NCBI GenBank assembly: GCA_013374835.1
Contig: CP055307.1
Coordinates: forward strand, 542,963 to 606,962
DNA length: 64,000 bases
Reading direction: 5' to 3'
DNA from: Candidatus Woesebacteria bacterium
GTDB taxonomy: Bacteria; Patescibacteriota; Microgenomatia; UBA8517
The notes under the pieces: model-generated
The model's input: the letters and a program-made list of their open reading frames with translations, nothing else
What the model was told of the DNA's origin: nothing
The model's database searches: none
Shown here: positions 10,856-60,354 of the stretch, in pieces
Position numbering within the stretch: the first letter of the stretch is position 1
Layout: each line of letters begins with the position of its first letter
Made by a program: the position numbers and the translations under genes

Positions 10856-10856
10856 G

Positions 10857-26155: not shown

Positions 26156-26894
26156 AAAATTGCTTTTATCGATAATTGTGCCTGCTTATAAGCAGGAAAA
26201 GACTATAAAAAAAGATCTTGAACGAATGATTTCGGTTTTTGAAGAGGGACTTGGCAAAACTATAGATTTTGAGGTAATAGTTGTGGTTGACGGGAAAGTA
26301 GATAAAACGGAGCAAGAAGCAAAAAAGGTAAAAGATGGCCGGATAAGAATAATTAGCTACGAGCAAAATCGGGGTAAAGGGTATGCTGTTCGAATGGGAA
26401 TGAAGTCTGCGCATGGGGAGCTTATTTCATTTCTTGATGCAGGGATGGATATAAGTCCCAAGAGCCTTTTGATGCTTATGGCGCATTTTACTTGGTATGA
26501 GGCAGATATAATAGTAGGGTCTAAGAGACATCCCGTTTCGCGCGTAAATTACCCATTTAAGAGGAAGCTATTAAGCTTGGGGTATCATTTACTGGTTAGA
26601 GTGTTTTTTGGACTTAATCTGTCGGATACACAAAGCGGCATTAAAATTTTTAGGCGTGAGGTTGTTGAAAAAATAATCGATAAGCTTTTGGTTAAGCGGT
26701 ATGCAATGGATATTGAGATGCTTGCTGTTGCCAGACGATTTGGGTTCAGAAGAATTTATGAAGCACCCATTGAAGTGACTTTTAATAAAAGTACTAGTGC
26801 AATAAATTGGCATACAATTTATAAGATGCTTTGGGATACTTTGGCTGTTTTTTATAGACTTAAAATTCTTAGGTATTATGATAAAGCCAGATAG
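26142..26894 (+). CDS. GT2, Dpm1/GtrB-like polyprenol-phosphate sugar synthase candidate
   Basis: LLSIIVPAYKQEKTI, VIVVVDGKVDKT, NRGKGYAVRMGMKSAHGELISFLDAGMD (DxD) and GSKRHP. It sits immediately after the flippase. Confidence 0.65.
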   Translation: MGRNRKLLLSIIVPAYKQEKTIKKDLERMISVFEEGLGKTIDFEVIVVVDGKVDKTEQEAKKVKDGRIRIISYEQNRGKGYAVRMGMKSAHGELISFLDAGMDISPKSLLMLMAHFTWYEADIIVGSKRHPVSRVNYPFKRKLLSLGYHLLVRVFFGLNLSDTQSGIKIFRREVVEKIIDKLLVKRYAMDIEMLAVARRFGFRRIYEAPIEVTFNKSTSAINWHTIYKMLWDTLAVFYRLKILRYYDKAR

Positions 26895-43142: not shown

Positions 43143-44120
43143 ATGCGATCTTTTATCGAACTTAAGGTTAGTATTATTATCCCGCTTTATGTTATAGTTC
43201 CTAGGTTCTTTAGGGACTTGAAAAAGTTTAGAAAATTAAATTATTCAAATTATGAAATTTTGATTGTAACTGATAGGGAGGTTGATAATATTGACGAACC
43301 TAAAGTTCGCGTAATATATACGGGAAAGAAGAGAACGGGGCCGGCTGAGAAGAGAGATATTGCTATTTCTCAATCTAAAGGGGATATTTGTGCGTTTATA
43401 GATGATGATGCATACCCTCATCCTAATTGGCTAAAGAATGCAATGATTCATTTTAATCATCCTTTGATAGCGGCTGTTGGTGGACCGGGCGTGACCCCAA
43501 AGGAGGATAAATATTGGGAACAGCTTACAGGTTTTGTTTATGAATCTTATTTTACCGGAGGTAAAGCAAGGTATAGGTTTGTCAGAGAAAATATGCGATT
43601 TGTTGACGATTACCCTGCTTATAATCTTCTTGTAAGAAAGAAAGTGTTAGAGGATGTAGGAGGCTACGGATCGCATTATTACGGTGGTGAAGACACCTTT
43701 CTTTGCCTTAAGATTCACAAAAAGGGTGGAAAAATTTTATACGACCCTGATGTAGTCGTTTATCATCATCGGAGGGCATTATTTTTGCCATATCTTAAGC
43801 AAATTGCAAACATTGGAAGACACCGGGGATATTTTGCAAGAAAGTATCCTGAAACTTCAAGGCGGCTTTTTTATTTTCTACCAAGCTCCTTGGTTATATT
43901 TGGGCTGATTCTTATTTTAATGGGTCTGCTTTTTAATTTTTTATATATATATTTTTTTGTATTTTTGTTTATTTTTTCTTATTTGGTATCTATTTTTTCC
44001 GTAGTCAGAAAGGCAGGATTTTTGGATTCATTAATTGTCTCAATAGGGATTTTGGCTACCCATGTAGTTTACGGATCAAATTTTATTAAGGGTTTTTTGA
44101 CTAAAAATATAAAGCTATGA
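43143..44120 (+). CDS. Glycosyltransferase family 2 with C-terminal TM helices
   Basis: VSIIIPLY, ILIVTD, DICAFIDDDAYP (DxD), GGEDTFLCLKI. Confidence 0.7.
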   Translation: MRSFIELKVSIIIPLYVIVPRFFRDLKKFRKLNYSNYEILIVTDREVDNIDEPKVRVIYTGKKRTGPAEKRDIAISQSKGDICAFIDDDAYPHPNWLKNAMIHFNHPLIAAVGGPGVTPKEDKYWEQLTGFVYESYFTGGKARYRFVRENMRFVDDYPAYNLLVRKKVLEDVGGYGSHYYGGEDTFLCLKIHKKGGKILYDPDVVVYHHRRALFLPYLKQIANIGRHRGYFARKYPETSRRLFYFLPSSLVIFGLILILMGLLFNFLYIYFFVFLFIFSYLVSIFSVVRKAGFLDSLIVSIGILATHVVYGSNFIKGFLTKNIKL

Positions 44121-45676
44121 TTTACGAAGTTATTATTGCACTTATCATAGGAGTCTTATATTTTCCTCTGTTTGGCGCCTTTTTTGCACAGGACGAATTG
44201 TTTTTTTTTGGAATTGCAAATGAAGTCAAAGGCTTCGGGGTGTTTAGATATTTCGTACCTCATACAACTCACTATATTCCATTCACAGAGATTTTCTCTT
44301 TTCTTTTTTATAGACTTTTCGGTCTAGAGGCACGCTATTATTTCTTTTTGGCTATTTGTGGACATATTGTTTTAGCGTTGATTTTTTACCGTATTTTGAG
44401 GCTTCTTTCTATTTCAAAGAAAAACTCATTAATTACTTCGCTAATGTTCGGATTAAATTCTTCAATACATCAGGGTGTAACATGGCCACTGGTAAGCATT
44501 AATATTTTTGGTTCCAGCTTATTAGGTTTATTTTCTATCCTTTTTTTTATACGTGCAGTAAAAACAAAGAAAAATAGACTCTATCTTGTTTCTTCATCAA
44601 TTCTTTTTCTATCTCTTTTTTTTAAAGAGAGTGTAATTGGCATGTTTTTGTTTTTAATAGTTTTACTTTTTATTTTCGATAAAAGACGAAAGCCTATTTT
44701 ATTTTATTTGGTTAGTTTGTTCTTTTATATTTTATTTAGAATTTATCTTTTAATAAACTCAAAAGACGTTCCTCTTCCTATAGAGTCTCAATCTGTTTTT
44801 GAGATTTTATATAATTTTTTAACATTCCCTCCAAAAATATTTTTCCAAACAATAATACCCAATAATTTTATAAGTTATTTCCATCCTGAAGTTAGGAATT
44901 GGCAGTTTGATGCTTTGTTCATGGTAGCTTTTGTGGTTTTGATTTTTTATATTTATAAGTTGTATCGTTCTAACAAAAGGCTTGGTTACTTGAATTTAGT
45001 TTTAATTTTTTTGTTTTTTGGAATTGTAAATAGCCCCATATATGCGTTTTCTCCAGAGAGGGTGGGGTTGATTACATTTGTCGATTCGAGAAATTTATAT
45101 TTTCCCGCTTTTGGGTATTTATCATTTTTTATGCTTTTTGTGTCTTGCGTAGTTAAAAATAAAAAAACATTTATCTTTTTTATTATTTTATATTTCAGCC
45201 TACATATTTTATTTCTTGAAAAACAATTAATTGAACAATCCCACATAGGCAGCTTGAGAAAAAATATATTAGAAGAGATTCTTGCAATTTATCCTGATTT
45301 GCCTGAAAAGACGGTATTTCTAATGCTTTCTGATAAATCTCACTACGGTCTTCCTGACGAAATAAAAATTCCTCCTTTTCAATCTGGTTTTGGGCATACA
45401 CTTCTTGTTTTTTATGAACCTTATGAAAATTTTCCATCATCTTTTTTTGAACATGATTTCTTATGGCCAATTGATAGTCAAGGCTATAAAAAGGAAGGTG
45501 AGCGTGGGTTTGGTTATTTTAGGAATTATGGTGATATGCTAACTTTTATTAAAGATAGCAGTTTGGATGACGGAAACGTTATAGCTTTTGCTTATAAATC
45601 TGATGAGAAAAGGGTATATGATATAACAGAGAATATTAGGGAACGAATTAAAGCAGATATTGATAATATCGATTAA
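44117..45676 (+). CDS. Polytopic membrane protein, GT-C-like candidate
   Basis: 519 aa, multi-TM. N-terminal loop FAQDELFFFGIANEVKGFG (DE motif). Confidence 0.4.
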   Translation: MIYEVIIALIIGVLYFPLFGAFFAQDELFFFGIANEVKGFGVFRYFVPHTTHYIPFTEIFSFLFYRLFGLEARYYFFLAICGHIVLALIFYRILRLLSISKKNSLITSLMFGLNSSIHQGVTWPLVSINIFGSSLLGLFSILFFIRAVKTKKNRLYLVSSSILFLSLFFKESVIGMFLFLIVLLFIFDKRRKPILFYLVSLFFYILFRIYLLINSKDVPLPIESQSVFEILYNFLTFPPKIFFQTIIPNNFISYFHPEVRNWQFDALFMVAFVVLIFYIYKLYRSNKRLGYLNLVLIFLFFGIVNSPIYAFSPERVGLITFVDSRNLYFPAFGYLSFFMLFVSCVVKNKKTFIFFIILYFSLHILFLEKQLIEQSHIGSLRKNILEEILAIYPDLPEKTVFLMLSDKSHYGLPDEIKIPPFQSGFGHTLLVFYEPYENFPSSFFEHDFLWPIDSQGYKKEGERGFGYFRNYGDMLTFIKDSSLDDGNVIAFAYKSDEKRVYDITENIRERIKADIDNID

Positions 45677-46076: not shown

Positions 46077-47780
46077 ATGAGAATACTTGGAATATCTTGT
46101 TTTTATCACGACTCGGCAGTTGCTTTGATAGAGGATGGAAAAATTATAGCAGCTGCCACCGAGGAGCGCTTTAGTAGGAAAAAACACGACAGCGGTTTTC
46201 CAAAAAATGCGATCCGGTTTTGTTTAGATGAGGGTGGAATAAGTTCTTCAGAACTTGATTGGGTGGTTTTTTATGAAAAGCCTTTTTTAAAGTTTGAGAG
46301 GATTACTTTGTCTTTTTTGCAAACTGCTCCTTTTGCAAGAGGTTCTTTTGTTAATGCTTATACAAGCTGGTTGAAAGACAAAATATGGATTAAGTCTATT
46401 ATCTCAAAAGAAGTGGATGTGCCAGCTGATAGGATTTTATTTACGAAGCACCACGTGTCGCATGCCGCAGCTACTTTTTTTACATCTCCTTTTGAGAGAA
46501 GCGCTATTTTGACGGTTGATGGAGTCGGAGAGTGGACTACAACAGCTTGGGGCATTGGTGAGGGAAGAAAGGTCAGATTGCTTAAAGAAATAAGATTTCC
46601 ACATTCATTAGGGCTTTTTTATAGTGCATTTACTCAGTTTTTGGGTTTTCGCATAAATGATGGTGAGTTTAAGGTAATGGGTCTTTCGCCCTACGGTGAA
46701 CCGAGATATAAAAAGGAAGTTGAAAAACTAATTTACCAATCGGCTGATGGCTCGTTTAGGCTTGATTTATCTTATTTTAATTATCATTTGTCCGATACCG
46801 TAAGCTATAGTAAAAAGTTTATTAAGCTTTTTGGAGAGCCTCAAAATCCTGCTAAAAGCGATAGAGTAATTAAAAGATATGCGGACATCGCCGCGTCTGC
46901 TCAAAAAGTGTTAGAAGAAAAGCTTCTTGTAATTGCCAAAAATGTCAAAGAAAAAACCGGCATGGACAGGCTTTGCTACGGTGGCGGTGTTGCCCTAAAC
47001 GGAGTAGCAAATTGGAGGATATTCAAAGAGATTGGTTTTAGGGATTTATTTATTCATCCTGAAGCTGGAGATGCTGGCGGAGCCTTGGGAGCGGCTTTAT
47101 ATGTGTATCACAGCGTTTTGGGCAAACCAAGAAGGAAGGGTTTTAAAACCGTATATTTAGGATACGAAAACAGCGAGGATGAAATTGCAAGCTTTATTCA
47201 GAAAAATGGGATAGATGCAAAGTATTATAGTGACAGTGAACTTGTGAAAAAAGTATCTAGTTTGCTTTTAAGGAAAAAAGTTGTTGGTGTTGTGCGGGGA
47301 AGGTTTGAGTGGGGTCCGAGAGCGTTGGGAAATAGAAGCATTTTAGCGGATCCAAGAGACAAAAAGATGAAGGATTTGGTTAATGCAAAGATTAAGTTTA
47401 GGGAAGCTTTTAGGCCATTTGCTCCGGTAACTACCTACGAAAAAGCAAGGCTTTACTTTGATGTAGGAAAGATTATCCCACAGCCGCTTTCGCACATGAT
47501 CGCTGTTGTACCTGTAAATGAAAAGTATAGATCGCGGCTTGGGGCTGTTACACATGTTGACGGCACCGCAAGGCCGCAGTTTGTTAAACGATCGGAGAAT
47601 CCTTTTTATTACGATTTAATCAATGCTTTTGGCAAGAAAACAGGCGTTTACGTTTTATTAAATACATCCTTTAATCTTAAGGGGGAACCGATTGTGACTA
47701 GCTGTGAAGATGCGTATAAAACTTTTATGAAAAGCGGGCTTGATGTACTTATCTTGGGGAATTATTTGGTAGTAAAATAA
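46077..47780 (+). CDS. NodU/CmcH-family carbamoyltransferase
   Basis: The N-terminus MRILGISCFYHDSAVALIEDGKIIAAATEERFSRKKHDSGFP is the canonical Carbam_trans_N signature. 567 aa, and the C-terminal region is consistent with Carbam_trans_C. Confidence 0.85.
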   Translation: MRILGISCFYHDSAVALIEDGKIIAAATEERFSRKKHDSGFPKNAIRFCLDEGGISSSELDWVVFYEKPFLKFERITLSFLQTAPFARGSFVNAYTSWLKDKIWIKSIISKEVDVPADRILFTKHHVSHAAATFFTSPFERSAILTVDGVGEWTTTAWGIGEGRKVRLLKEIRFPHSLGLFYSAFTQFLGFRINDGEFKVMGLSPYGEPRYKKEVEKLIYQSADGSFRLDLSYFNYHLSDTVSYSKKFIKLFGEPQNPAKSDRVIKRYADIAASAQKVLEEKLLVIAKNVKEKTGMDRLCYGGGVALNGVANWRIFKEIGFRDLFIHPEAGDAGGALGAALYVYHSVLGKPRRKGFKTVYLGYENSEDEIASFIQKNGIDAKYYSDSELVKKVSSLLLRKKVVGVVRGRFEWGPRALGNRSILADPRDKKMKDLVNAKIKFREAFRPFAPVTTYEKARLYFDVGKIIPQPLSHMIAVVPVNEKYRSRLGAVTHVDGTARPQFVKRSENPFYYDLINAFGKKTGVYVLLNTSFNLKGEPIVTSCEDAYKTFMKSGLDVLILGNYLVVK

Positions 47781-48967
47781 TTTTCAAGTAAATTATTGAA
47801 AAGAAATTTTGCCGCAAGGTCTGATCCCAATTGATTCCAGTGCCCTTCAAGACGATTGTGTGTTTTTGCGCTTTTGTTTTCTATTACATATTTTTTGAAT
47901 GTATCAAGCATTTGCCAGCAGGTAAGATTTTCTTTTTTGCAGAAAGTGTTTATCTCCTTGTCTGGTTTTTCTAGATCGAAATCTTTGTTTTTCATTTCGG
48001 GATATGTATTTTTAATCTCTTCCCAGATACTCTCGTGCACTTGTTCATTGTTTGAAAGCGTGACTAAAATGTAGTCGGCACCCATTTTTTTTGATTCATC
48101 GCGGGATGCGCGAATTAGGGTTTTTGTCAGCTCCCAAGCATTCCGATAATCTGGGCTCCAATCTTTTTCGTAAACATGGTATTCAAGCGGGAACCCATCG
48201 AATTTAGTATGTTTTTTATATTCAAAATATTTTTGTCTTGCTTGGAGTATTAGTTTTACAGTCCTTAATTTTTTGAGAGCTTCTTTAAACCTTGCTAATT
48301 TTCTTTGGCTATGCAGTTTATGCGGAATTAGTTTTAGCTCACCTTTATTGTCTAATTCGAAATAAGGCAGGTAGGAGTCTTCTTGGAGCTTTTGGGAGTT
48401 ATTTTTTATATCGTTGGCTGTTAAAAACATATGTAAAACCAGATCTGGTTTATATCTAGCAACTTCGTTTTTAAGAATGATATATTGCTGGGCTGTGCCT
48501 GTATTTCCGCGTCCGACGGCTATTATTTCTATGTTTTTATCCAGCTTTTCATTGAGCATTTTTTCAAGTTTTCTAAAAAATCTGTTTTCGAGAGATACTT
48601 GCATATTTTCAACAAACGAATCGCCAAGGATAATAATTCTGAATGTGTTTTCTTGTTTTTTAACGGTGTGCTCTATATCGGGCCATCCGTCGGAGTTGAC
48701 CTCTACCCAGGTGAAGTATTCTTTAGTTAGAGGAACAAACCATCCCTCTTGATTTGGAACAAGAGCGTTCCCAAATGTTTTGTTGTCATAAAAGCGTAGA
48801 GTGGTTCTTTGGGGAGTAATGCTTAATATTTGTCTATACCCCAACGCCTGATAGATGCGAAGGCCAATTTCTATTGATGTTAATGGTAATAAGAAGCCTA
48901 AAAATATGAGGATTAGTGGGCTTAATTTTGACAGTAGTTTTTTATATGTTTTTGAGAATAAATCCAT
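47762..48967 (-). CDS. SGNH/GDSL-like hydrolase or acyl-esterase candidate with an N-terminal TM anchor
   Basis: 401 aa. N-terminal TM, then block I IIILGDSFVENM, and a later GRGNTGT plus a C-terminal GHW. It is convergent with the carbamoyltransferase, overlapping it by 19 nt. Confidence 0.4.
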   Translation of the reverse strand: MDLFSKTYKKLLSKLSPLILIFLGFLLPLTSIEIGLRIYQALGYRQILSITPQRTTLRFYDNKTFGNALVPNQEGWFVPLTKEYFTWVEVNSDGWPDIEHTVKKQENTFRIIILGDSFVENMQVSLENRFFRKLEKMLNEKLDKNIEIIAVGRGNTGTAQQYIILKNEVARYKPDLVLHMFLTANDIKNNSQKLQEDSYLPYFELDNKGELKLIPHKLHSQRKLARFKEALKKLRTVKLILQARQKYFEYKKHTKFDGFPLEYHVYEKDWSPDYRNAWELTKTLIRASRDESKKMGADYILVTLSNNEQVHESIWEEIKNTYPEMKNKDFDLEKPDKEINTFCKKENLTCWQMLDTFKKYVIENKSAKTHNRLEGHWNQLGSDLAAKFLFNNLLENYFTTK

Positions 48968-51900
48968 GACAGGATAGCTCCATTTATATTTATAACATGA
49001 ACGAGTGGTTTTTCTTGTATTTTGTAAATGATTGGTTCATTTGGCAAAAGTGTCTTGAAGGAGTTTTCTAGGATTATTACTTCTTCCTTTTCCCAATCTG
49101 TAGTTATTTTTAAACTGCTATAGTAGGGCAGAACGGTTTTGCTACATCCGAGAAACGCTACAGATTTTACTTGAGGCATGCACTTTTTAACGTATTCAGC
49201 TGCTTCGCGGCCTCCGTAACAGAGGCCGATAAGATCGTAATTTTGTGCTTTTTTTGTCCCTCCTGTGAAAACATTATAGAAGGTAAAGTAGTTTGGGAAA
49301 AATTTAATAGCAATTGTTGCTTGATAGATAATTACAAAAATAATTAAAAGGCTTAATAGCTTTTTACTTATTTTTTGGTTTAGAAGGCTGTAGGATGCGG
49401 CCAGATAGATCCATGGCCAAAGAGGGAGTATATAGCGGGCGCCAAGTTTTTTGCCCATAAGGCTCATTGAGAAAAGATAAGCGAGGTTAAAGATGCTGAT
49501 AGCTAACGCTTTTTTGTTTACCAATACCTTATTTATATATTTGAAAGAAACTAGAAAGAGTACAATTATAGGAATGGGTACTCTTGCAGCTAGCTGGAAT
49601 AGGTAATATAGGGCGCTTGGGTTTTTGCTTATGTTCCCCCAAAAGTAGTTAGCAGTCCCTTTGCTTGCAATCGTGCCTTGATTGATTAGATATTCGACTA
49701 TAAATAGAGGGTTTGACCATAAAGCAGGCCACAAGACAAGTAGAGCAATATAAGCGACAGTAAAGGCAAAAAAAGCCTTTTTGGCATTAAAAAAGAAAAA
49801 AGGTATGGCAAGAATTATCGATTGAGGTTTGCTCATAAAAGCGATTGCTGTAAAGATCCCACTTGATATTATTGATTTATTTTTTTCCTCAATAAATAAA
49901 AAGGATATTAAAGCCAAAAATGAAAAAACTGTAAATAACGCATCGTGCTGAAGCATTCGCGAACTTTCTGTGAAAACTGGATCAAAAGAAAGAAGGAGTG
50001 TCGTTAATATTGCGGTCTTGGGTGAAATTTTTAATTTTATAAATAAAAAATAGGTTAAGAGAAAAAGGGATATTGTAAGAGAGTGGGCGATCCGTGAGGC
50101 CGTGAATTCCGGAAGTATGTTAATCGATAATGAGCTGTCGTTTTTTCCTAAAATAATTTGGCTAGGGGATATTAGTGTAATGAGGGGTAATCCTATTGTT
50201 TCTGTGTCTTCTTTTTCATACCACCAGGCATTTTTGAAATAATTAAAATTTTTTTTAAGGATTGCATAAAATACTTCTCTCGAGCGTGAAGCCCAGGTTA
50301 TTTCGTCCGGATTTATGGTTGTTTCTTTTAGATTATAGAGCCGTGGTAAAAAGACGCCTGTCAAAAGTGCGAGATACATTAAAGCTTTCGCATCCGGCAA
50401 ATGAAGCTTAATTTTTTGTTTTTTAAGCGTAATAACTGCAAATACGATTGATAGAGCCGAAATTATAAGACCGTTTATTAGGCCTTTGGGGATATAGGTG
50501 AGTTTCAGGAATCTGGATCCTTTGGGGATTTGAACCTCTCTTAGTGCTTCGGGAGTTTCCTGCACATCTATTTTTCTTCCGTCCAGATATGCGACCCATC
50601 CCGAAGAGTAAATCTCTGATAATATCAAGTTGCCCTCTTGATTCTTGTCGAATTCATATTTCAAAGAGTTTGGTTTTATTGTTATTTTTTTAGGGGGATC
50701 GCCGTTTTTGAAATACGCACGCGGCTTGACAATCGTGTTTTCATATATTTTAAAGCCTTCGATTTCTTCAATTAATTTTAATGAGCTGTCGGTTAGTTTA
50801 TGGGGAGAGACGATATATTTTACCGAGTATTCAGCTAAATAAATTGAATAAGGGTCGAGATTTTCTGAGTAAAGTATCCAAGATGGAGGTATCGAGAGGC
50901 TATATTTTTCGTGCCAAAAAGTATTCATTAAAACCGGCGCTCTTTTGAAGTAGTTTTTTTGTTGGAGAGTGCTGTAGCCCTCGATTGTTTCAAGACCGTA
51001 CTCGACTATCTTATTTTGTGACAAACATCGAGTTGTGCAAAAGACCCTTTCGTCTTTTATATTCTTTTGGAGAAAGATATAAACGGCCTCGGGAACTTTA
51101 TTTTGTGGTGTTTGAACTGGTCTTGTAATTCTTCCCCAAGAAAGGACTGCAAGTTCAACTATTGCGAGAACTGAGAGGGCTTTAACAGTTTTGCTTTTAT
51201 ATTTTTTAAGGGCAAAAGCAGCAAGAAAAATTGTTACTAAAATCGGGATAAAAAAGATTCTTGTTGGTACTCGAAGAAGGATGAAGTAATCAAGCCTAAT
51301 AAGAAACGAATATATTGGTGAAGCGTTTCCTGACGCAAAAAGTGTTATGAGAATCGCCAAGGCGAATATGGAAATTTTGAGATTTTTTTCGAGTTTTAAA
51401 AACCCTAGTAATGCTAGAATAAGCGAAGCTCCTCCGAGCGAGATATAAGCTTCGGTATCTAATTGGCTGATTGCGTTTCTGGAAACTAAAAGCGAATTTA
51501 TCGACGCTTTCATAAATTCAAATATAGAGTGCCAAGGAGGGTAGATTTCCGGATTGTTAAGTAAAAAGCTTCGTGTAGTTTGTGGTTGCCATGCTAGCTG
51601 TGGTAGCATGGCACAAGTAATAAGGCCAAACCCAATAAGATTGCCGCCTATGAAATTTAGCGTTTTTTTGGTTTTTTGTTTTTGATTGATTAACAAATAA
51701 ATGAATATTATTGCTGAAGATAGCAATGCTATTGCCCATGTTACGCTGTGATTGAAAAATATTGAGGCTATAAAAAAAGCGAAGAATATACGATCGTTAG
51801 GTTTTTTATTTTGTGATAATCTAATAACAAAATAAAAAAGCGGCGGGATAAGCCCCCATGAGTATATAAGACCTAAGTGTCCTGCTTCAATGTAAGATGC

Positions 51901-52296
51901 GAGTCTTGGTGTGAAAACATAGGTAATTGATGCAAAAAAAGATGCTGTTTTGGGAAATTTAAAAACTGAAGCGATTTTGTCTATAAAGATAACTCCTAGA
52001 AGAAGATGCAGATAGATTAAAATCAGTGTGCTTATTTTGATAGGTAAGAATAGATGCAGAATGTTTGGAGGGTAAAAAATGGGCGCCTGAGGATCCGGTG
52101 CGAGCGGTGTGCCGGAGAGTATGTGTTTGTTCCAAAGTGGTAGTTTTTTATTTATTAATATCTCCTTTTTGGTATAGGAAATAAGCGGTATAAAAAATTC
52201 TTCAAGGTCGTTTCCGCGAGAGAAAAGAAAATCGGGATGAATAATTACTGGAAGTAGAAAAAATAGTGTTATTACGGCAAGCCTTAGCTCTCTCAT
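48922..52296 (-). CDS. Fusion protein: YfhO-like membrane module + ArnT/PMT_2-like GT-C module
   Basis: 1124 aa. The N-terminal half has LPLWNKHILSGTPLAPDPQAPIFYPPN and a mid-protein GWVAYLDGRKIDVQETPEALREVQIPKGSRFLKLTYIPKG + TM, which corresponds to a YfhO tail. The C-terminal half is a second polytopic domain with LLLSFDPVFTESSRMLQHDALFTVFSFLA, which is PMT_2/ArnT-like. Confidence 0.5.
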   Translation of the reverse strand: MRELRLAVITLFFLLPVIIHPDFLFSRGNDLEEFFIPLISYTKKEILINKKLPLWNKHILSGTPLAPDPQAPIFYPPNILHLFLPIKISTLILIYLHLLLGVIFIDKIASVFKFPKTASFFASITYVFTPRLASYIEAGHLGLIYSWGLIPPLFYFVIRLSQNKKPNDRIFFAFFIASIFFNHSVTWAIALLSSAIIFIYLLINQKQKTKKTLNFIGGNLIGFGLITCAMLPQLAWQPQTTRSFLLNNPEIYPPWHSIFEFMKASINSLLVSRNAISQLDTEAYISLGGASLILALLGFLKLEKNLKISIFALAILITLFASGNASPIYSFLIRLDYFILLRVPTRIFFIPILVTIFLAAFALKKYKSKTVKALSVLAIVELAVLSWGRITRPVQTPQNKVPEAVYIFLQKNIKDERVFCTTRCLSQNKIVEYGLETIEGYSTLQQKNYFKRAPVLMNTFWHEKYSLSIPPSWILYSENLDPYSIYLAEYSVKYIVSPHKLTDSSLKLIEEIEGFKIYENTIVKPRAYFKNGDPPKKITIKPNSLKYEFDKNQEGNLILSEIYSSGWVAYLDGRKIDVQETPEALREVQIPKGSRFLKLTYIPKGLINGLIISALSIVFAVITLKKQKIKLHLPDAKALMYLALLTGVFLPRLYNLKETTINPDEITWASRSREVFYAILKKNFNYFKNAWWYEKEDTETIGLPLITLISPSQIILGKNDSSLSINILPEFTASRIAHSLTISLFLLTYFLFIKLKISPKTAILTTLLLSFDPVFTESSRMLQHDALFTVFSFLALISFLFIEEKNKSIISSGIFTAIAFMSKPQSIILAIPFFFFNAKKAFFAFTVAYIALLVLWPALWSNPLFIVEYLINQGTIASKGTANYFWGNISKNPSALYYLFQLAARVPIPIIVLFLVSFKYINKVLVNKKALAISIFNLAYLFSMSLMGKKLGARYILPLWPWIYLAASYSLLNQKISKKLLSLLIIFVIIYQATIAIKFFPNYFTFYNVFTGGTKKAQNYDLIGLCYGGREAAEYVKKCMPQVKSVAFLGCSKTVLPYYSSLKITTDWEKEEVIILENSFKTLLPNEPIIYKIQEKPLVHVININGAILSWIYSQKHIKNYCQN

Positions 52297-52315
52297 TTAT
52301 GTTATTATACTAGTT
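52297..52315. promoter_or_regulatory. Divergent 19-nt junction carrying the same TATTATACTAG box
   Basis: TATTATACTAG at 52303-52313 lies between the divergent starts at 52296 (minus) and 52316 (plus). The minus strand reads TATAAT. Confidence 0.3.
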
Positions 52316-52810
52316 ATGAAGGTGGCGATAGCTGGTTTGGCGTTTTTTTTAGTATTTTTGGGAGGAGGAGAAGCTCATATTTTTGCGCAAGAGAATCAAA
52401 AAAACGCTATTGAATTTGAAGAGGTAAATCCATCTGATCGAGGGGAGTATTTTATAAAAAGATTTAAGGAGAAACTAACGCTTACTCTCTTAAGTTTTCT
52501 ACCTGAGAAAAAGGCTAATTATTTCCATAAGCTTATTAAAGTAAGATTTTCCGAGCTTGTTAATGTCGCCGAGAACAAGGATTTATATAATTTTGAAAAA
52601 TCTTCGCAGAGATACTATACCACTGTAGGTCAGACGGTAACATATGTGAAAGACAAAAATTTTGGCGTGAAGCAGGACATTTTGGAAACCTTAAATCAAC
52701 ACGAAAAAATAATCGAGTCGCTTTTATCCGAATTTACAAGGGATTCTGCACCGTGGCTTTTTTTAAAGCATGATTATGATTATATTAAGACCTATAAAAC
52801 AATGCTTTAG
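52316..52810 (+). CDS. Secreted hypothetical protein
   Basis: 164 aa. Signal-peptide-like N-terminus MKVAIAGLAFFLVFLGGGEAHIFAQEN, with no Cys for a lipobox. The rest is hydrophilic. Confidence 0.4.
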   Translation: MKVAIAGLAFFLVFLGGGEAHIFAQENQKNAIEFEEVNPSDRGEYFIKRFKEKLTLTLLSFLPEKKANYFHKLIKVRFSELVNVAENKDLYNFEKSSQRYYTTVGQTVTYVKDKNFGVKQDILETLNQHEKIIESLLSEFTRDSAPWLFLKHDYDYIKTYKTML

Positions 52811-52956: not shown

Positions 52957-55434
52957 ATGATAAGGAATAATTTTAAGCTTATTTTATTTATTCTTTTAAT
53001 CTTTGTTTTTTTTAGGCCTTTTTTTACATTTTCAGATCTTTCTTGGGGAGATGCTCCTTATTATTTTCACGGTGAGTTTGCCAATCTTTTAAACGGATTT
53101 TCCGTCTGGAGTAGTGAGGGAAATAATTTTGGTGGTATAAACGCTCTCTTATGGCTTTATCCTATTAATTTTTTGATAGGATTTTTGGGCAGTGTTTTAA
53201 GACTGGATCATCTAGTTATAGTTAGGATAGTTTTTTATTTTCCCAGTTTGATAATGGCCGTAACTACTTCTTATCTTTTGGCAAAAGAACTTGGATTAAA
53301 AAAAGGCGCGTGGGCGGCGGCTTTATTGTATGTTTTTAATTCCTATTACCTTCTTCTGGTTGATGGAGGACAGGTGGGGGTAGTTCTTTCTTACGGTTTT
53401 TTACCTTTAGTTGTACTTTCTTTGATTAAGTTAAAGTTTTCTTTGGCAAATTATGTTTTTTCTACATTGATACTTAATTTTGCAGTGCTTATTGACCCCA
53501 GAATTGCCTTTGTTGGTGTTTTGGGAACTTTTATATATAGAGTATTAGAGTTTGTACGGAATGGTGGCAGAGAAATTAGAGGATTTTTGGCCGCGCTTTT
53601 TTTGGTTTGTGCCAGCGTTTTATTAATGAATATGTTTTGGATTTATCCCCTTTTTGCTCTGGGCGGAATAGAAGTGGGATCTGAGGTTTCCCGTTTAAAT
53701 TTGTTTTCTTTAGTTAATGGATTTACGTTATTTCAACCACACTGGCCGGTTAATATATTCGGAGAGGTAAGGCCGCCACTTTTTTATTTTTTGGTTTTGC
53801 CTATTTTTATATGGTCTGGGTTATTGGTTGATAAAAGAGGAAAGTTGTATACATTTTTATTGTTAAATTTAATATTTATATTTATTTTAAAGGGTGAAAA
53901 TGCTCCCTTTGGACAATTATATAAGTTTATTCTTAGCCTTCCTTTTGGTTTTGTTTTTCGCGATTCGAGTAAGTTTTTTCCGGGTGTTATTTTGTTTTCC
54001 TCCTTGTCGCTTTCGTTTTCGGTTTCGAAGAGGAAGAACAATTTTTTTTCGATTGCAGTTTTTTTGGCGGTAATTGCACCGCTTTTGCCTGGGTTGACAA
54101 AATTTAATTTTGTGCTTTCCAGACGTGTTCATGATAAAGAATTTTACAGGATAGGCGAGTATTTATCAGATACCTCAGGCCGGGCATTGTGGATTCCCGA
54201 GAGATATCCTATCCATTTTAACAGCGATGAAAGCCATGCTCTGGATGGCAGACTTTTAACTGAATATCCTTTGTTTGCTATTAATAATGTTGGCTCTCAT
54301 GATAAGCTCAATTACTTACACAACAGCGATTCCATTTCTCTTCTCAAACGTTTGGGGGTGACTTATCTTGTTTTATCTCAAGATCATAGAAGCATAGCCG
54401 TGGGAGATGAGGAGATTTTAGAGAGGGAAATGCTTATTAAAAGTATTAAGGAAACAGATGGTATTACCAGAGTTGATGGCTTTGAAAGACTTTATCAAAT
54501 TTTAGGTGCGCGACCTTATATTTATACAACCGACTCTTTAGCTATCTATTCTGATTATCTTGAAGGGATATATGAAAATGAAAACAGCGCAATAGCCTTT
54601 TTATCCGATGGTACTTTTCGAATCGAACCCCTTTTCAAAGCTCCTTATGGAAGTATGCTTATTAATGCTTCCACTACTGATGTTGCAATGAATCTTCTTA
54701 TTGATGAGATTTACGAAATCCCTCAAAGTGAGTGGGCTAAATACGACTCCTCCCGTAGACTCGAATGGCAGTATCAGCTTTTGACTCGCGGACTTGCTTT
54801 AAAATCTTTGGATTATAAAAAAGGCGTAGCTTTTTCTGATAGAAGAGGAGAGCGTGTTGTTTTAAGAGAGGATGCTGGGCAAAATGTGTTTGCTCTTAGA
54901 GCTGCAGGTAGCAAGGAGGCTCGGCTAGTCATTAATACAGAAAGCGGCCAAGAATTTATTGAATTTGATGGGGAAGCCGGTTTTAGTTGGTATGTTTTTA
55001 CACTTGATAAGCCTTATGCAGAACTTGTTAATGATGCAGGGCTTGTTGTTTTGAACGTATATTCTTTTGTAGAAAAATCGCGGTTTGATGAAGCTCTTGA
55101 GAAAGCTTCCAGCATGATTTCTAATTATAAGTCTTTGGAAAAAGACGGTTGGTATAAGGTGGATTACAAAAGGGAAATCCCTACTTACTTTCGTGTTGGG
55201 AAAACAGCGGGAAACTATTTGATTGTAGCCGAAAACTACCACAAGGACTGGTTGATTAACGATTCGGTGCATTTCTCTGTTTATGGGGGATTTAACGGGT
55301 TTCTGCTAGAGCCTGAGACTGATGCTGATTTAGTTTTTCGCGGCCAAAGGCATTTGATTTACGGTACAGCTATGTCTTTTGCAGCATATTTAGTCTGTTT
55401 AGTTGCTATTATTAAATTATGCAAAAGAGGTTAA
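52957..55434 (+). CDS. Large polytopic membrane protein with a YfhO-like C-terminal beta domain (GT-C-like candidate)
   Basis: 825 aa. About 380 aa of TM helices, a soluble domain, and a C-terminal YHKDWLINDSVHFSVYGGFNGFLLEPETDADLVFRGQ followed by a final TM helix. Confidence 0.45.
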   Translation: MIRNNFKLILFILLIFVFFRPFFTFSDLSWGDAPYYFHGEFANLLNGFSVWSSEGNNFGGINALLWLYPINFLIGFLGSVLRLDHLVIVRIVFYFPSLIMAVTTSYLLAKELGLKKGAWAAALLYVFNSYYLLLVDGGQVGVVLSYGFLPLVVLSLIKLKFSLANYVFSTLILNFAVLIDPRIAFVGVLGTFIYRVLEFVRNGGREIRGFLAALFLVCASVLLMNMFWIYPLFALGGIEVGSEVSRLNLFSLVNGFTLFQPHWPVNIFGEVRPPLFYFLVLPIFIWSGLLVDKRGKLYTFLLLNLIFIFILKGENAPFGQLYKFILSLPFGFVFRDSSKFFPGVILFSSLSLSFSVSKRKNNFFSIAVFLAVIAPLLPGLTKFNFVLSRRVHDKEFYRIGEYLSDTSGRALWIPERYPIHFNSDESHALDGRLLTEYPLFAINNVGSHDKLNYLHNSDSISLLKRLGVTYLVLSQDHRSIAVGDEEILEREMLIKSIKETDGITRVDGFERLYQILGARPYIYTTDSLAIYSDYLEGIYENENSAIAFLSDGTFRIEPLFKAPYGSMLINASTTDVAMNLLIDEIYEIPQSEWAKYDSSRRLEWQYQLLTRGLALKSLDYKKGVAFSDRRGERVVLREDAGQNVFALRAAGSKEARLVINTESGQEFIEFDGEAGFSWYVFTLDKPYAELVNDAGLVVLNVYSFVEKSRFDEALEKASSMISNYKSLEKDGWYKVDYKREIPTYFRVGKTAGNYLIVAENYHKDWLINDSVHFSVYGGFNGFLLEPETDADLVFRGQRHLIYGTAMSFAAYLVCLVAIIKLCKRG

Positions 55435-56672
55435 GAAATCTTTTTTTAAGCAATACCTTTAAAGATACCGGTAAGATTTTTGCGGGAAACATTTTTTCTT
55501 CTTTTCTCGCGATTTGTTTCTTTGTTTTGGCCGCCAGGGTGCTTGGGCCTGGTAATTTTGGAATTTTTTCTTCTGTTATTTCTTTATCCTTGATTTTTAT
55601 AGCGATTGGAGATTTTGGTCTTGGATCGGCACTATTTAGATTTGTATCGGCAGAGTTGAAAGATACTAAGAAAGCATCAAAAATTCTCGAATTTTTATTC
55701 AACCTAAGGGTCGGCAGCGCAACTGCGTTTTTAATCATTCTTTTAGTTTTTTCTCCTTTGATATCCGTTATTACTTTTGGAGAGATAAATATGTTTTATG
55801 TTTTTATTTCGATTTTAAATGCTTTTTTCTTTTTAATAGTTGATTTTGAAATTCAGAAATACCAATCGAGGAAGCAATTCAAAACCGCTTCGATTTATAT
55901 TGTTTTGGTTAATTTTTTTAGAGTTTTAGGGTTGGTTTTTTTGGTATTAATAAATATAAAAGACTACAAATATTTTTTAGCGATTTATGCCTTATCAAGC
56001 GGCGTTACTTTTTGTTTTCTTTATTTTGTTGAGCCTATCCAATTAAAGCTGGGTGCTGACTGGAAGGTGAAATTTAGAGATGTCTTTCATTTTTCTGGAT
56101 GGATGGGTTTAAATAAATTGCTTTCTTCGATTGGCTCGAGGATTGATGTAATTTTGATCTATCGAATACTTACTCCTTATGAGACCGGGATATATTCGGC
56201 TTCCAAACAGCTTTCTTTTGGGGTACCACTTTTTGTAGGCAGTTTTGCAACTGTGATTGCTCCTAGATTTTCTAGCATTTCAGAAAAAGACCTGTATATG
56301 TATTTAAAAAAAACTATTGGTCTTTCTGTTTTAATATGCTTTGGTCTTATTTTTGGTATTATTGTTTCACCCTTTATTATCGGTTTGTTTGGTAGTGAAT
56401 ACGCGCATTCTTTGGCCGTTTTGAGGATCTTGCTTTTTTCGTATATTCCTTTTGTTTTATCAACACCGGCCGTGAATTATATTATTTATGCTCTAAAAAA
56501 GCCCAGGGTAATTTTTTATATCACTTTGTTTGATGTTTTTGTGGTTATTTTAGGAAATATGTTTTTTCTTCCGCGTTTTGGCGTGATAGGATCTTCTTAT
56601 CTGCAGGTTGTTGTAAATACGGTGCTGTTTTTTTTCGCTAATGTCTATCTTTTTAGTAAAATAAAAACATGA
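55419..56672 (+). CDS. Wzx-like flippase (MOP superfamily), copy B
   Basis: 417 aa, the same length as copy A at 24902-26155, with about 12 TM helices. ARVLGPGNFGIFSSVISLSLIF parallels RALGPSSYSVLASVFSLYY in copy A. Confidence 0.55.
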   Translation: MQKRLRNLFLSNTFKDTGKIFAGNIFSSFLAICFFVLAARVLGPGNFGIFSSVISLSLIFIAIGDFGLGSALFRFVSAELKDTKKASKILEFLFNLRVGSATAFLIILLVFSPLISVITFGEINMFYVFISILNAFFFLIVDFEIQKYQSRKQFKTASIYIVLVNFFRVLGLVFLVLINIKDYKYFLAIYALSSGVTFCFLYFVEPIQLKLGADWKVKFRDVFHFSGWMGLNKLLSSIGSRIDVILIYRILTPYETGIYSASKQLSFGVPLFVGSFATVIAPRFSSISEKDLYMYLKKTIGLSVLICFGLIFGIIVSPFIIGLFGSEYAHSLAVLRILLFSYIPFVLSTPAVNYIIYALKKPRVIFYITLFDVFVVILGNMFFLPRFGVIGSSYLQVVVNTVLFFFANVYLFSKIKT

Positions 56673-57406
56673 AGAAAAAAAAGGTAATAGTTGTCATGCC
56701 GGCCTATAATGCTGAAAAGACACTTAAAAAGACTTATAAAGATATTGATAAGAATCTTGTAAATGAAATAATTCTGGTTGATGATGGATCTAAAGATAAA
56801 ACTGTAGAAGTTGCTAAAAAGATGGGCATAACGACTTTTTCTCATTATAAAAATTTGGGATATGGAGGAAACCAGAAGACGTGTTATTGGGAGGCTTTGA
56901 AAAGAAAGCCTGATGTGGTTGTAATGATACACCCTGATTACCAGTATGACGCTACTTTGATAGAACAATTGATAAATCCTATACTTATGGGAAGATATGA
57001 TTATATGTTCGGATCGCGCATAAGGACTAGAAAAGAGGCTTTAGCTGGCGGGATGCCATATCATAAATATATTTTTAATAGATTTTATACAATAATTGCT
57101 AATTTGGTCATGGGAGTAAATTTTACAGAACATATGTCGGGTATGAGAGCTTATTCTGCAAAGACCCTGAGGAGAATACCGTTTCAAAGATTTTCGAATG
57201 ATTTTGTGTTTGATCAACAGTTTACTGTTTCGGCAGTTGCCAAAGGGCTTAGGGTAGGTGAAATAGCTATACCGGTACGTTATTATGAGGAAAGTTCCTC
57301 TATTAAGTTTTTCGCAGGTTTGAGATTTGGCCTTGGTTCTTTGTGGTGTTTAGCTTTGTTTATTTTTAATTCTTTGGGTATATATAAATCAAAAATATTT
57401 AAGTAA
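56669..57406 (+). CDS. GT2, Dpm1-like polyprenol-phosphate sugar synthase candidate
   Basis: VIVVMPAYNAEKTL, ILVDDGSKDKT, GYGGNQKT, and a C-terminal hydrophobic helix. It sits immediately after flippase copy B. Confidence 0.65.
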   Translation: MKKKKVIVVMPAYNAEKTLKKTYKDIDKNLVNEIILVDDGSKDKTVEVAKKMGITTFSHYKNLGYGGNQKTCYWEALKRKPDVVVMIHPDYQYDATLIEQLINPILMGRYDYMFGSRIRTRKEALAGGMPYHKYIFNRFYTIIANLVMGVNFTEHMSGMRAYSAKTLRRIPFQRFSNDFVFDQQFTVSAVAKGLRVGEIAIPVRYYEESSSIKFFAGLRFGLGSLWCLALFIFNSLGIYKSKIFK

Positions 57407-58243: not shown

Positions 58244-59050
58244 ATGGGAAAATGTATTCTTTGTGGCAGCAATAAATTTGAAGATTTATATGATAGCCTT
58301 GAGCGGTGTACGAATTGTTTTTTGGTGAGGACGAGAAAGAAAAATGAGGTTAACTATAAAGCTTATTACAGGGACTTTGTATATCGAGAGTATGAGAGTT
58401 ATTTCAAAAACATTTACATGAAGCGATTTAAGCTTATCTCGAGATATGTAAAAAGTCCTGGGCGAGTGCTTGAGATTGGGTCTTCTGTTGGAATCTTGCT
58501 TGGTATTTTTAAGGATAAAGGGTGGGAGGTTTGGGGAGTTGAGCCTTCGAAGAGCATAAAGTACTCAAAAAAAAATGCGCATAAGCTTTTAAAAAGTACG
58601 TTTGAGAAATGCCGACTGCCTGAGTCTTATTTTGATGTGGTTGTTCTTAACCATACTCTTGAGCATATGGAAAATCCGAGGGAGACTTTAAAAAAGGTAA
58701 ATATAATTTTAAAGAGGGGCGGAATTGTTTTTATTGATGTACCGAATTTTGGAAGTTTATCGTCTAGAATAAGCAGAGAATATTGGAAATATTTGCTAAC
58801 TAATGAACATACATATCATTTTACGAAAAGTACTCTTACAAAGATTTTAAGAAAGTGCAACTTTGAAATTGTATATTCAAGGAGCTGGTCTGGGATATTC
58901 GATTCGGATAACGTCTTAAAAAGATTTTGGTTTAATTTTAGTAATTTTAAGTTAAATTTTTTTGTCGATATCTTAGATGCTTTCGGAAATATTGTTTCAA
59001 CTATTTTAGATAGAGGAACAAACTTGGTAATAATCGGCAAGAAAAAATGA
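58244..59050 (+). CDS. SAM-dependent methyltransferase with an N-terminal Cys4 zinc-ribbon
   Basis: CILCGSNKF...CTNCFLV, then VLEIGSSVGILL, FDVVVLNHTLEHMENP and LKRGGIVFIDVPN. Confidence 0.85.
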   Translation: MGKCILCGSNKFEDLYDSLERCTNCFLVRTRKKNEVNYKAYYRDFVYREYESYFKNIYMKRFKLISRYVKSPGRVLEIGSSVGILLGIFKDKGWEVWGVEPSKSIKYSKKNAHKLLKSTFEKCRLPESYFDVVVLNHTLEHMENPRETLKKVNIILKRGGIVFIDVPNFGSLSSRISREYWKYLLTNEHTYHFTKSTLTKILRKCNFEIVYSRSWSGIFDSDNVLKRFWFNFSNFKLNFFVDILDAFGNIVSTILDRGTNLVIIGKKK

Positions 59051-60354
59051 AGATTTACCTCGGTTTTTTGATGTTTTTGCATATATTTATTCTCAGGCTT
59101 CTTTCTTTTACAGCTTGGCCTGAGATGTTTTCTTTTCCTTACTTAATTTCGCAAGGATATTCTTTATATAAAGATGTAGTTTATGTTTATACGCCCATCT
59201 TGCCGTATTTGCTTTTGGGTGTGTTTAGAATATTTGGTTATAAGATTTTGGTGCTTAAGGCGTTTACCTGGATTTTAATTCTTCTAAATGATTTTTTGAT
59301 TTATAAAATCACACACCGCCTTACGAAAAAAGAGTATTTGGGTTTTTTGGCTACCGGAATTTATGTTTTTTTGCAGCCTTTTTGGGAGGGAAACATGCTT
59401 TGGTTTGATTTGGCTTATGTAACGCCCGTTCTTTTATCTTTTTATTTTTTGATAAATAGAAAGTATTTTATAGCCGGTTTGGCTATTTCAATAGCTTTTC
59501 TTACAAAGCAGATTGCTGTGGTATTTGCGGCTTTGTTTTTGATGCAGATTTTTTTGAGCAGGAAACGTGTTGATGAATCGGTATATCGATACGCTGTTGG
59601 CGTTTTGTTTCCAGTTGGGATATTTGCTTTTTATCTTATTTTAAGCGGGGATTTGGAGTGGTTTTTTAACTGGACATTTTACTATCCAATGAAATATTGG
59701 AGTTTGTTCCCGGGGTATATTGACTTTAATTTATCTAAATTGGACTTTTTTGAGATTTTGTGCTTACTTTTGCCTTTTTTGGCTGGGCTATATAAGATTC
59801 GAGGAAAGCCTGTGGCAGGATTTTTGGCGGTGGCGCTTTTAATGTCCTTTTTGGCTTTTTATCCGCGTTTTTCATTTTTTCATCTTCAAATGTTTGTAGC
59901 ATTTTTTGCGATTTATTCAGCTTATATTGTTAAATATGTAGGCCGTAGATATGTTTTTTTGCTGTCAATTTTTTTAATATTTTCCGTTGTCGGGCAATTT
60001 AGAGGGGGTAAGGCTTCTTTCCGTGGGGATAGATTTTGGGAAAAGGAAACTCTTTTATTAGCCGAGAAGCTGCCTCAAAAGAGCCATCTATATTATTTGA
60101 ATTTGCCGTCGCATTATTATTTTTTGACAAAAAGTTTGCCCCCTAAACCTTGGGTTGATAATTTTGGTTGGTATTGGGAGGTGCCTGGTTTTCAACAAAA
60201 AACGCTTGAACGCTGGAGTGTTAATCCGCCGAAATATATTGTTTGGCAAAAAGGAGCCTATGAGCCAAAGGTTGTTACATCGTGGATTAAAGCAAACTAT
60301 AATGTTAATAAATTGGTGGAGAATATAATCATATGGCAGAAAAAAGAAAATTAA
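59047..60354 (+). CDS. Polytopic membrane protein, GT-C/DUF2029-like candidate
   Basis: 435 aa with about 11 TM helices and a soluble C-terminal tail. Confidence 0.35.
   Translation: MKIYLGFLMFLHIFILRLLSFTAWPEMFSFPYLISQGYSLYKDVVYVYTPILPYLLLGVFRIFGYKILVLKAFTWILILLNDFLIYKITHRLTKKEYLGFLATGIYVFLQPFWEGNMLWFDLAYVTPVLLSFYFLINRKYFIAGLAISIAFLTKQIAVVFAALFLMQIFLSRKRVDESVYRYAVGVLFPVGIFAFYLILSGDLEWFFNWTFYYPMKYWSLFPGYIDFNLSKLDFFEILCLLLPFLAGLYKIRGKPVAGFLAVALLMSFLAFYPRFSFFHLQMFVAFFAIYSAYIVKYVGRRYVFLLSIFLIFSVVGQFRGGKASFRGDRFWEKETLLLAEKLPQKSHLYYLNLPSHYYFLTKSLPPKPWVDNFGWYWEVPGFQQKTLERWSVNPPKYIVWQKGAYEPKVVTSWIKANYNVNKLVENIIIWQKKEN

Follow-up and report, generated by a model that had tools for sequence, protein, structure and literature searches.

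Can one bacterial polypeptide hold two complete membrane glycosyltransferases of the GT-C class, and, if such a protein is real, what would bring the two enzymes together? The locus that raises this question lies in a 64,000-nucleotide stretch of a Candidatus Woesebacteria genome (assembly GCA_013374835.1, contig CP055307.1, positions 542,963 to 606,962 of the forward strand; hereafter the window, whose own numbering we use throughout). Here, a 1124-codon open reading frame (ORF) at 48922..52296 on the minus strand begins with ATG and runs without an internal stop in both the ORF list and the translation; the plus-strand translation of the same interval is riddled with stops. A preliminary description of this DNA, made from its letters alone, had given the coordinates and the intact frame correctly while leaving the strand unstated, and every peptide motif quoted there is found in the translated product. 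Translation, Pfam searches and comparison with orthologues confirm the fused ORF and support its reading as a YfhO-type GT-C module (the N-module) followed by a PMT_2/ArnT-type GT-C module (the C-module); no NCBIfam model covers the fusion. With a probability of roughly 0.65, we regard it as a genuine, selectively maintained fusion of two formerly overlapping genes, whose two GT-C modules both decorate one extracytoplasmic acceptor in two steps; the lineage that carries it belongs to the Microgenomates, within the Patescibacteria.

The N-terminal half had been described as looking like a complete YfhO-family protein. In a Pfam search of the whole fusion, the YfhO model (PF09586) scored 43.2 bits against a gathering threshold of 28.5 (E 2.4e-11) at residues 534–613 only, and the N-half searched alone scored 50.3 bits against the same threshold; the alignment is limited to profile positions 755–835, which correspond to the tail, and the model is reached by just 4 of the 22 members of the N-module subfamily. 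Because this match is partial, two alignments were built for testing full-length homology: A3, comprising the N-half and its ~640-residue homologs, and A5, comprising 18 Pfam-positive YfhO proteins, including the product of the window's own gene at 1508. Compared with hhalign, A3 and A5 matched with a probability of 100% and E 2.9e-68 over 622 columns, pairing residues 2–638 with 3–776. By this full-length profile match to bona fide YfhO proteins, the N-half is a complete but compact and divergent member of the family. AlphaFold2 models were built separately for each half from homolog alignments, and that of the N-half is confident (predicted local distance difference test, pLDDT, 94.4; predicted template modelling score, pTM, 0.93), with a GT-C fold, a C-terminal extracytoplasmic beta domain and a terminal transmembrane (TM) helix. 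On the sequence and fold criteria tested, the N-module belongs to the YfhO family. Searched against the PDB, the N-module profile returned nothing meaningful, no YfhO-family relative being detectable by sequence among solved structures.

Within the N-module, the membrane core (residues 1–391; 51124..52296, minus strand) contains about 11 TM helices and an outward first loop that carries N29-D30, invariant in the family, and the LPLWN motif at residues 52–56. The codon of D30 (52207..52209, minus strand) specifies a residue that is invariant in two alignments, of 58 and 22 homologs, and whose counterpart in bona fide YfhO proteins is their own invariant Asp (D77 of the product of 1508); conservation and this alignment make it the candidate catalytic Asp of the first module. 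W55 is likewise invariant and N56 at least 90% conserved in the N-module family, aligning respectively with W101, invariant in the YfhO set, and with N102 of that set, so that LPLWN falls on the PLWNP of YfhO proteins. The LPLWN-type loop that the fusion had been said to share with the gene at 1508 is indeed common to both, reading KLPLWNKHILSGTPL at residues 51–65 of the fusion (shorter core KLPLWNKHILSG, residues 51–62) and QLPLWNPHILGGLPL in its counterpart. A soluble, mostly beta domain follows (residues 392–603; 50488..51123, minus strand), predicted to be extracytoplasmic from the AlphaFold2 model, Pfam and the Lys-rich loops of the module; it includes the YfhO tail match and has its modelled strands at residues 492–601. 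The reported beta tail and subsequent TM helix are present as GWVAYLDGRKIDV...LKLTYIPKG (residues 566–605) and the hydrophobic helix LINGLIISALSIVFAVITL next to it. This last TM helix of the N-module, predicted to run from outside to inside, spans residues 604–624 (50425..50487, minus strand; hydropathy 2.44), with the model helix extending over 604–631.

The C-module (residues 638–1124; 48925..50385, minus strand) starts from a TM helix of its own, TM1 (residues 638–655), and ends in a small alpha/beta domain (residues ~1000–1124; 48925-49299, minus strand). Pfam PMT_2 (PF13231) matches residues 732–859 with 41.5 bits against a cutoff of 26.1 (E 2.1e-10), covering profile positions 22–158 of 160, so that both families named beforehand exceed their gathering thresholds in a domain-wise search. 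The loop LLLSFDPVFTESSRMLQHDALFTV (residues 759–782), which had been found reminiscent of PMT_2/ArnT enzymes, falls inside this match. A profile of the C-half (A2) searched against the PDB recovered Pmt1 (6p25_A, E 2.2e-7), Pmt2 (1.2e-5), 9i5k (1.1e-4) and ArnT (5ezm, 4e-3). Absence of a GT-C fold from the second half had been raised as a possible objection; the AlphaFold2 model of the C-half shows that fold with confidence (pLDDT 91.4, pTM 0.90). By the sequence and fold tests applied, the C-module is a member of the PMT_2 family. Just past TM1, the sequence PDEITW contains a 'DE' motif, D664-E665 (codons 50302..50307, minus strand), in which, across 13 homologs, D664 never varies and E665 is conserved in at least 90%, and PDEI(I/T)W is kept in the split genes described below. 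These residues form a candidate catalytic pair, putatively equivalent to the DE motif of protein mannosyltransferases (PMTs); this equivalence is positional only, as the A2 alignments to Pmt1 and ArnT stop short of the loop.

Two narrower identities for the C-module were rejected. It is 15% identical to ArnT proper, the enzyme that transfers 4-amino-4-deoxy-L-arabinose (L-Ara4N) to lipid A, in a structural alignment, and there are no arn genes among the annotated ORFs of the window; for lack of a lipid A pathway context it is not to be named an L-Ara4N transferase, and the term 'ArnT family', which one database source applies to a C-module homolog, is a family-level label only. Nor is it a recent duplicate of one of the ten other PMT_2 genes in the window, the best paralog of which (30998) is only 22% identical (E 8e-6).

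Could the long ORF be an artefact, in which a chimeric join or a missed frameshift or stop in sequencing or assembly has merged two genes? In the closest relatives, the genes for the two modules overlap in different frames within A-rich sequence, and an error in homopolymer length there could counterfeit a fusion. The in-frame junction nevertheless recurs. An identical 1124-residue protein is encoded on four contigs, among them one of 901,682 bp from NCBI and one from the Logan assembly of SRR6825875, and an orthologue that is 74% identical (P0002, 1126 residues) shows the same in-frame fusion and the same synteny; with its further variants P0239 and P0240, the latter cluster contains three variants, drawn from Logan, JGI/IMG and ENA and from samples SRR35045364 and SRR35045360, so that samples and assemblers differ. 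At the junction, the two orthologues are separated by synonymous differences and one amino acid change (LHLPDAK versus LHPPDAK), with the frame kept in both, and a linker of this kind is unlike the product of a single-base error in a split sequence. A chimeric join or a missed stop is excluded, as far as assemblies without reads allow, and we accord the artefact next to no probability.

The homologs of the fusion fall into two groups, proteins of ~640 residues that match the N-half only (34–50% identity) and ArnT-like proteins of ~500 residues that match the C-half only (33–46%). In the two closest split relatives, the modules are encoded by adjacent overlapping genes in the same order as in the fusion. 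In GCA_964607795.1 (loci L004/L014), the N and C genes overlap by 32 nucleotides (at ~5382-5413 in L014), and in a Candidatus Microgenomatus sp. (DYGT01000002.1; loci L011/L034) the N gene (7953-9890) and the C gene (9862-11379) have 29 nucleotides in common (9862-9890). The split N gene ends in ...AIYKKIKH* or ...AIKIKKTNI*, and the split C gene starts MQ(Y/L)...N(S/T)I...(F/L)(M/L)PRLY(N/D)L.ATTIYPDEIIW, while the fusion at the same junction reads ...AVITLKKQKIKLH-LPDAKALMYLALLTGVFLPRLYNLKETTINPDEITW. A search among relatives for the same fusion, as had been proposed, accordingly finds it kept in the 74%-identical cluster and finds the modules as overlapping neighbours in the closest split genomes. 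These split loci place the ancestral N-gene stop codon in the Lys-rich cytoplasmic linker KKQKIKLHLPDAK (residues 625–637; 50386..50424, minus strand), and their comparison with the fusion shows, at the sequence level, an origin from adjacent overlapping genes: the old N stop was lost, the fusion runs on from precisely that point, and the two reading frames merge within the Lys-rich overlap.

The nucleotide sequence of the junction has a feature of its own. Where the split N and C genes overlap, A7 runs occur, and in either locus the C gene is read in the +1 frame with respect to the N gene; the fused genes carry A6CA6 at this position. Such slippage-prone sequence might give occasional fused or split products. 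In L011/L034, the split C gene is followed by a gene of 416/425 residues that has no similarity to the 401-residue protein encoded downstream of the fusion and was rejected as its homolog.

Purifying selection acts on both halves: codon comparison of the two fused orthologues put the ratio of nonsynonymous to synonymous substitution rates (dN/dS) at 0.13 in the N-module and 0.26 in the C-module. The fusion has also kept all alignment columns that do not vary within the stand-alone families. These observations bear on a reading in which one module is catalytic and the other is a scaffold or acceptor-binding partner, comparable to the non-enzymatic subunits of GT-C fold (PIG-U, GAB1) or to an obligate dimer partner. 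This model has precedents in those subunits, but neither module of the fusion has lost an invariant residue of its stand-alone family (D30 and D664 are both in place), dN/dS is well under 1 in each, and stand-alone homologs of either module occur alone in many genomes. We find a division into enzyme and scaffold improbable.

The two orthologous fused loci, those of the window and of L001, are 85–89% identical in DNA sequence over 16 kb, except for one sharply bounded divergence island at ~49492-50214 (minus strand), which covers the PMT_2 core at residues ~695–935. As delimited by blastn, by identities in blocks of 40 residues and by the synonymous substitution rate (dS), the island has no nucleotide alignment to L001, a protein identity of 30–57% and a dS of ~2.0, as against ~0.4 in its flanks. 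This pattern suggests that the catalytic core was replaced by a divergent allele or cassette between strains while the fused frame was kept.

A polypeptide with two GT-C catalytic modules had been called unusual, and an exhaustive HMMER scan of 1.84 billion representative proteins bears this out: among the 160 strong hits (E <=1e-30), only the 50%-identity cluster of the query itself spans both halves. A full-text search of the literature found no paper describing a YfhO–PMT_2 fusion. Other combinations of the same partners do exist, and two involve a homolog of the gene immediately downstream of the fusion (47762..48967, minus strand), which overlaps its 3' end by 46 nucleotides and, by translation, Pfam and a TM scan, encodes 401 residues with an N-terminal anchor (TM helix at residues 18–36) and an SGNH/GDSL-like domain. 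With a GDS motif, a C-terminal GHW and a Pfam Lipase_GDSL_2 match below cutoff (E 4.8e-5), the product resembles an esterase or acyltransferase of SGNH type that faces outward. P0008 (L006 6001-9144) and P0140 join the N-module to a homolog of this protein (51% and 44% identity, respectively), P0185 carries a GT2 domain N-terminal to the N-module, and in P0095 (L013 1042-3273) a C-module homolog has a C-terminal GDSL domain; in L012, a C-module homolog directly follows a YfhO-superfamily gene resembling the 825-residue neighbour of the fusion. These alternative fusions and neighbourhoods suggest a functional link between the two modules, the SGNH-like protein and GT2 enzymes. The GDSL domain of P0095 was considered as an orthologue of the window's 401-residue protein and dismissed, the two having no blastp similarity and sharing only a broad fold class with weak Pfam hits.

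Two further long proteins widen this picture. P0103 (L046 3788-7213, 1141 residues) joins an N-module to 506 additional polytopic residues with a sub-threshold PMT_2 match (E 4e-5); this extra region reaches an hhalign probability of 15% against the C-module family and has no relatives among the collected sequences, so that a second independent fusion of a YfhO-like and a GT-C module is possible, though not established. P0103 sits in the same divergent pairing as the fusion, with an 889-residue neighbour. P0055, a 1468-residue protein on a 92-kb contig of a JGI metagenome, is a tandem of two YfhO modules, both halves of which align full-length to the product of 1508 and to each other, and its amino acid composition points to an unrelated high-GC organism. 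Because of this tandem, polypeptides with two GT-C modules are to be called rare but not unique to the lineage of the fusion.

The same distribution data bear on whether the fusion, if real, matters. It could be neutral: a stop codon lost in the A-rich overlap of two translationally coupled genes would leave two enzymes that act independently, on different acceptors or in different steps, with nothing gained beyond 1:1 co-expression. In line with this account, the split state is the rule, the N-module usually has no C partner nearby, the overlaps with their A7 runs are prone to indels, and the topologies of the modules are compatible without adaptation, which would make a fusion cheap. The fusion persists, however, between orthologues only 74% identical, with a junction that remains 91–95% identical despite a replaced or diverged C-module core; alternative fusions recur within the same set of partners; and the adjacent, overlapping arrangement of the split genes already suggests a shared pathway. 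We hold a neutral fusion to be unlikely, although it deserves some weight.

Hydropathy and model helices give the first module ~12 TM helices. Its short Lys-rich loops (residues 163–166, 203–212, 300–306 and 364–369, and the linker 625–637) all lie on one side, which by the positive-inside rule is the cytoplasmic one; the D30 loop, the long loop 241–288 and the beta domain at 392–603 would then be outside. Helix 604–624 is predicted to return the chain to the inside, and TM1 of the C-module (638–655) to lead out again to the PDEITW loop. As no extra helix is needed for the fusion, both putative active sites (D30; D664-E665) would face outward.

A framework for their action comes from multi-component transmembrane glycosylation, in which the polyprenyl-phosphate sugar made by a GT-A enzyme is carried across the membrane by a flippase and transferred on the outer side by a YfhO- or PMT_2-type GT-C (PMC8035078, PMC5836110). 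Teichoic acids and Ser/Thr-rich proteins are both possible targets of YfhO-type enzymes, and PgfM1 and PgfM2 together serve one pathway (PMC12041528). We infer the topology just described, the catalytic competence of both sites, the type of donor, the common acceptor and the order of the steps. Membrane-anchored GT2 enzymes encoded in the 64-kb window would make polyprenyl-phosphate-linked sugar donors, and its Wzx-type flippases would move these across the membrane. Each module would then take a sugar from such a donor outside the cell, the two adding sugars in two steps to one acceptor, either a cell-surface glycopolymer or a glycoprotein, and the membrane-anchored SGNH-like protein probably modifies the same product.

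Several observations weigh against this cooperative reading. Pfam recognizes only the tail of the N-module, with most of its subfamily (all but the 4 of 22 noted above) falling short of the YfhO model; D30 and D664/E665 are candidate catalytic residues by conservation and position; the C-module core is only 30–57% identical between the fused orthologues, which could mean a changed or relaxed function; and the organism is uncultivated. In addition, ~29 of the 32 genomes surveyed for the N-module have no C-module orthologue within 8 kb of it, and a partner this rare implies that the N-module does not need the C-module. A bolder version would see a covalent two-station machine for glycan assembly, whose packed sites hand over the acceptor, with the SGNH-like protein as a third station and, at the second, a catalytic core (residues ~695–935) swapped by recombination so as to alter sugar or linkage from strain to strain. 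We consider this version doubtful; if true, it would mean strain-level variation of surface glycans in episymbiotic bacteria of the candidate phyla radiation (CPR), with the fused scaffold kept.

The surroundings of the fusion are those of a glycan pathway. Divergently oriented to it lies a gene for an 825-residue polytopic protein (52957..55434, plus strand), which our tblastn survey identified as the most constant partner of the N-module, divergently adjacent to it in ~25 of 32 species-representative genomes. The window had been credited with three stand-alone YfhO-like genes, which turn out to be of unequal standing. The gene at 1508 is a Pfam YfhO member (E 4e-22); 52957 has no Pfam hits and is a remote YfhO-superfamily paralog, its family (A4) matching that of the N-module (A3) with an hhalign probability of 98.1% (E 8e-14, 466 columns); and 36614 is tied to the group only through blastp to 52957 (24% identity, E 1e-6). 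Between the divergent pair, a 164-residue protein with an N-terminal hydrophobic segment and a weak DUF5667 match below cutoff (E 3.8e-4) is encoded at 52316..52810 (plus strand), and synteny shows this gene kept in the same place in many relatives. Its start (52316, plus strand) and that of the fusion (52296, minus strand) are only 19 nucleotides apart (52297-52315), a spacing kept in L001 and L003. Such a gap can scarcely accommodate two promoters, so one of the called starts, or the transcription units, may be other than annotated.

On the other side, a convergent carbamoyltransferase of NodU/CmcH type (46077..47780, plus strand; Pfam Carbam_trans_N E 1e-83, Carbam_trans_C E 2e-66) is syntenic in relatives. 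Past the 825-residue protein, a Pfam and TM scan recognized a Wzx-type flippase (Polysacc_synt) and a 245-residue GT2 enzyme with one C-terminal TM helix (together 55419..57406, plus strand), a candidate donor supply whose gene order is kept in L001, L003 and L006. Flippases are present near the fusion, with Polysacc_synt genes at 55419-56672, syntenic in relatives, and at 24902-26155. Of the twelve GT2 ORFs scanned, several end in one or two TM helices (40441, minus; 43143; 61373; 32706, minus; 56669), a feature to be read with the caveat that no model used separates polyprenyl-phosphate-sugar synthases from other GT2 enzymes.

The entire 64-kb window is a glycan-biosynthesis island. It holds at least 12 GT2 and 6 GT4 enzymes, two Wzx-type flippases, about 7 methyltransferases, one carbamoyltransferase and one short-chain dehydrogenase/reductase (SDR), and nearly all of its glycan genes lie on the plus strand, with a uniformly positive GC skew. 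Eleven PMT_2-type modules (7746, 9170, 12748, 14448, 16039, 17750, 19417, 30998, 62206, a weak one at 26878 and the C-module itself) and four YfhO-superfamily modules (1508, 36614, 52957 and the N-module) bring the GT-C complement to at least 15. The gene at 26878-29298 (plus strand) encodes 806 residues with a sub-threshold N-terminal PMT_2 match and an F5/8 type C (discoidin) domain at residues 592–688; its product would unite a GT-C-like membrane part and a sugar-binding module, and an 828-residue protein resembling it is encoded at the P0008 locus. Five polytopic ORFs without Pfam hits (44117-45676, 3881-5425, 10857-12164, 59047-60354 and 23757-24905, plus strand; 382–519 residues, 7–9 predicted TM helices) may encode further GT-C-like or Wzy-like proteins, some of them having acidic motifs just past TM1 (AQDELFFFG in 44117, FGYDQARD in 3881 and GYHGDLNNN in 10857). 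The 32 genomes surveyed for the N-module belong to the Microgenomates, namely Daviesbacteria, Woesebacteria, Blackburnbacteria and Microgenomatus. Many cassette-bearing metagenome-assembled genomes (L014, L015, L017, L019 and others; binchicken co-assemblies) are titled 'uncultured Gammaproteobacteria bacterium'; these titles look like placeholder mislabels, as the gene content matches the Daviesbacteria, Woesebacteria and Blackburnbacteria records.

To our knowledge, teichoic acids are not established in CPR bacteria, and we know of almost nothing on the cell surface in Microgenomates, the genomes of which give remarkable space to GT-C enzymes, as the window illustrates. The fusion and the alternative fusions of its partners serve as a 'Rosetta stone': they argue for cooperation in this group between GT-Cs of YfhO and PMT_2 type and an SGNH-like enzyme, all working on one product. 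A natural single-chain pair of different GT-Cs is also an attractive structural target for the study of enzyme cooperation, the YfhO family being one without a sequence-detectable solved relative.

The nearest known counterpart of the first module is YfhO of the CsbB/GtcA/YfhO systems in Bacillus subtilis, Staphylococcus aureus and Listeria monocytogenes, which act in the modification of teichoic acids with N-acetylglucosamine (PMC5836110, PMC8035078) and with which the N-module is homologous over its full length. In both, a GT-C fold carries the invariant Asp of the first loop and the PLWN motif, and an outward beta tail leads into the final TM helix; as in YfhO systems, GT2 enzymes and flippases are encoded nearby. 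The N-module is, however, some 150 residues shorter than a typical YfhO (~640 versus ~780–860 residues), with Pfam detecting the tail only, and unlike YfhO it is joined covalently to a second GT-C and comes from a CPR host. The flippases recognized near the fusion are of Wzx type, whereas the YfhO system uses GtcA, a GtrA/GtcA type that was not searched for in our survey. The streptococcal PgtC2 and PgfM1/PgfM2, YfhO-type GT-Cs that act in protein O-glycosylation (PMC12041528), offer a parallel in that two GT-Cs from one locus serve one extracytoplasmic pathway, and they indicate that a YfhO-type enzyme may target proteins; PgfM1 and PgfM2 are both of YfhO type and separate chains, whereas the fusion places a YfhO-type and a PMT_2-type enzyme in one.

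The C-module is only 11–15% identical to ArnT (GT83) and to Pmt1, Pmt2 and Pmt4 (GT39), from which it also differs in having no MIR domain and in its small alpha/beta C-terminal domain. In the tandem YfhO protein P0055, as in the fusion, two complete GT-C modules follow one another, the second beginning right past the terminal TM helix of the first; P0055, by contrast, is a homotypic duplication from an unrelated organism and has no PMT_2 module. The fusion is a rare, heterotypic GT-C/GT-C combination, built from enzyme families and a logic of extracytoplasmic glycosylation that are already well known, and does not represent a new category. Physical association of two GT-C modules within the membrane is likewise familiar from Pmt1-Pmt2 (6P25) and EmbA-EmbB (7BVF), but these complexes pair paralogs of one family without a covalent bond, whereas the fusion links two different GT-C families through a single peptide chain.

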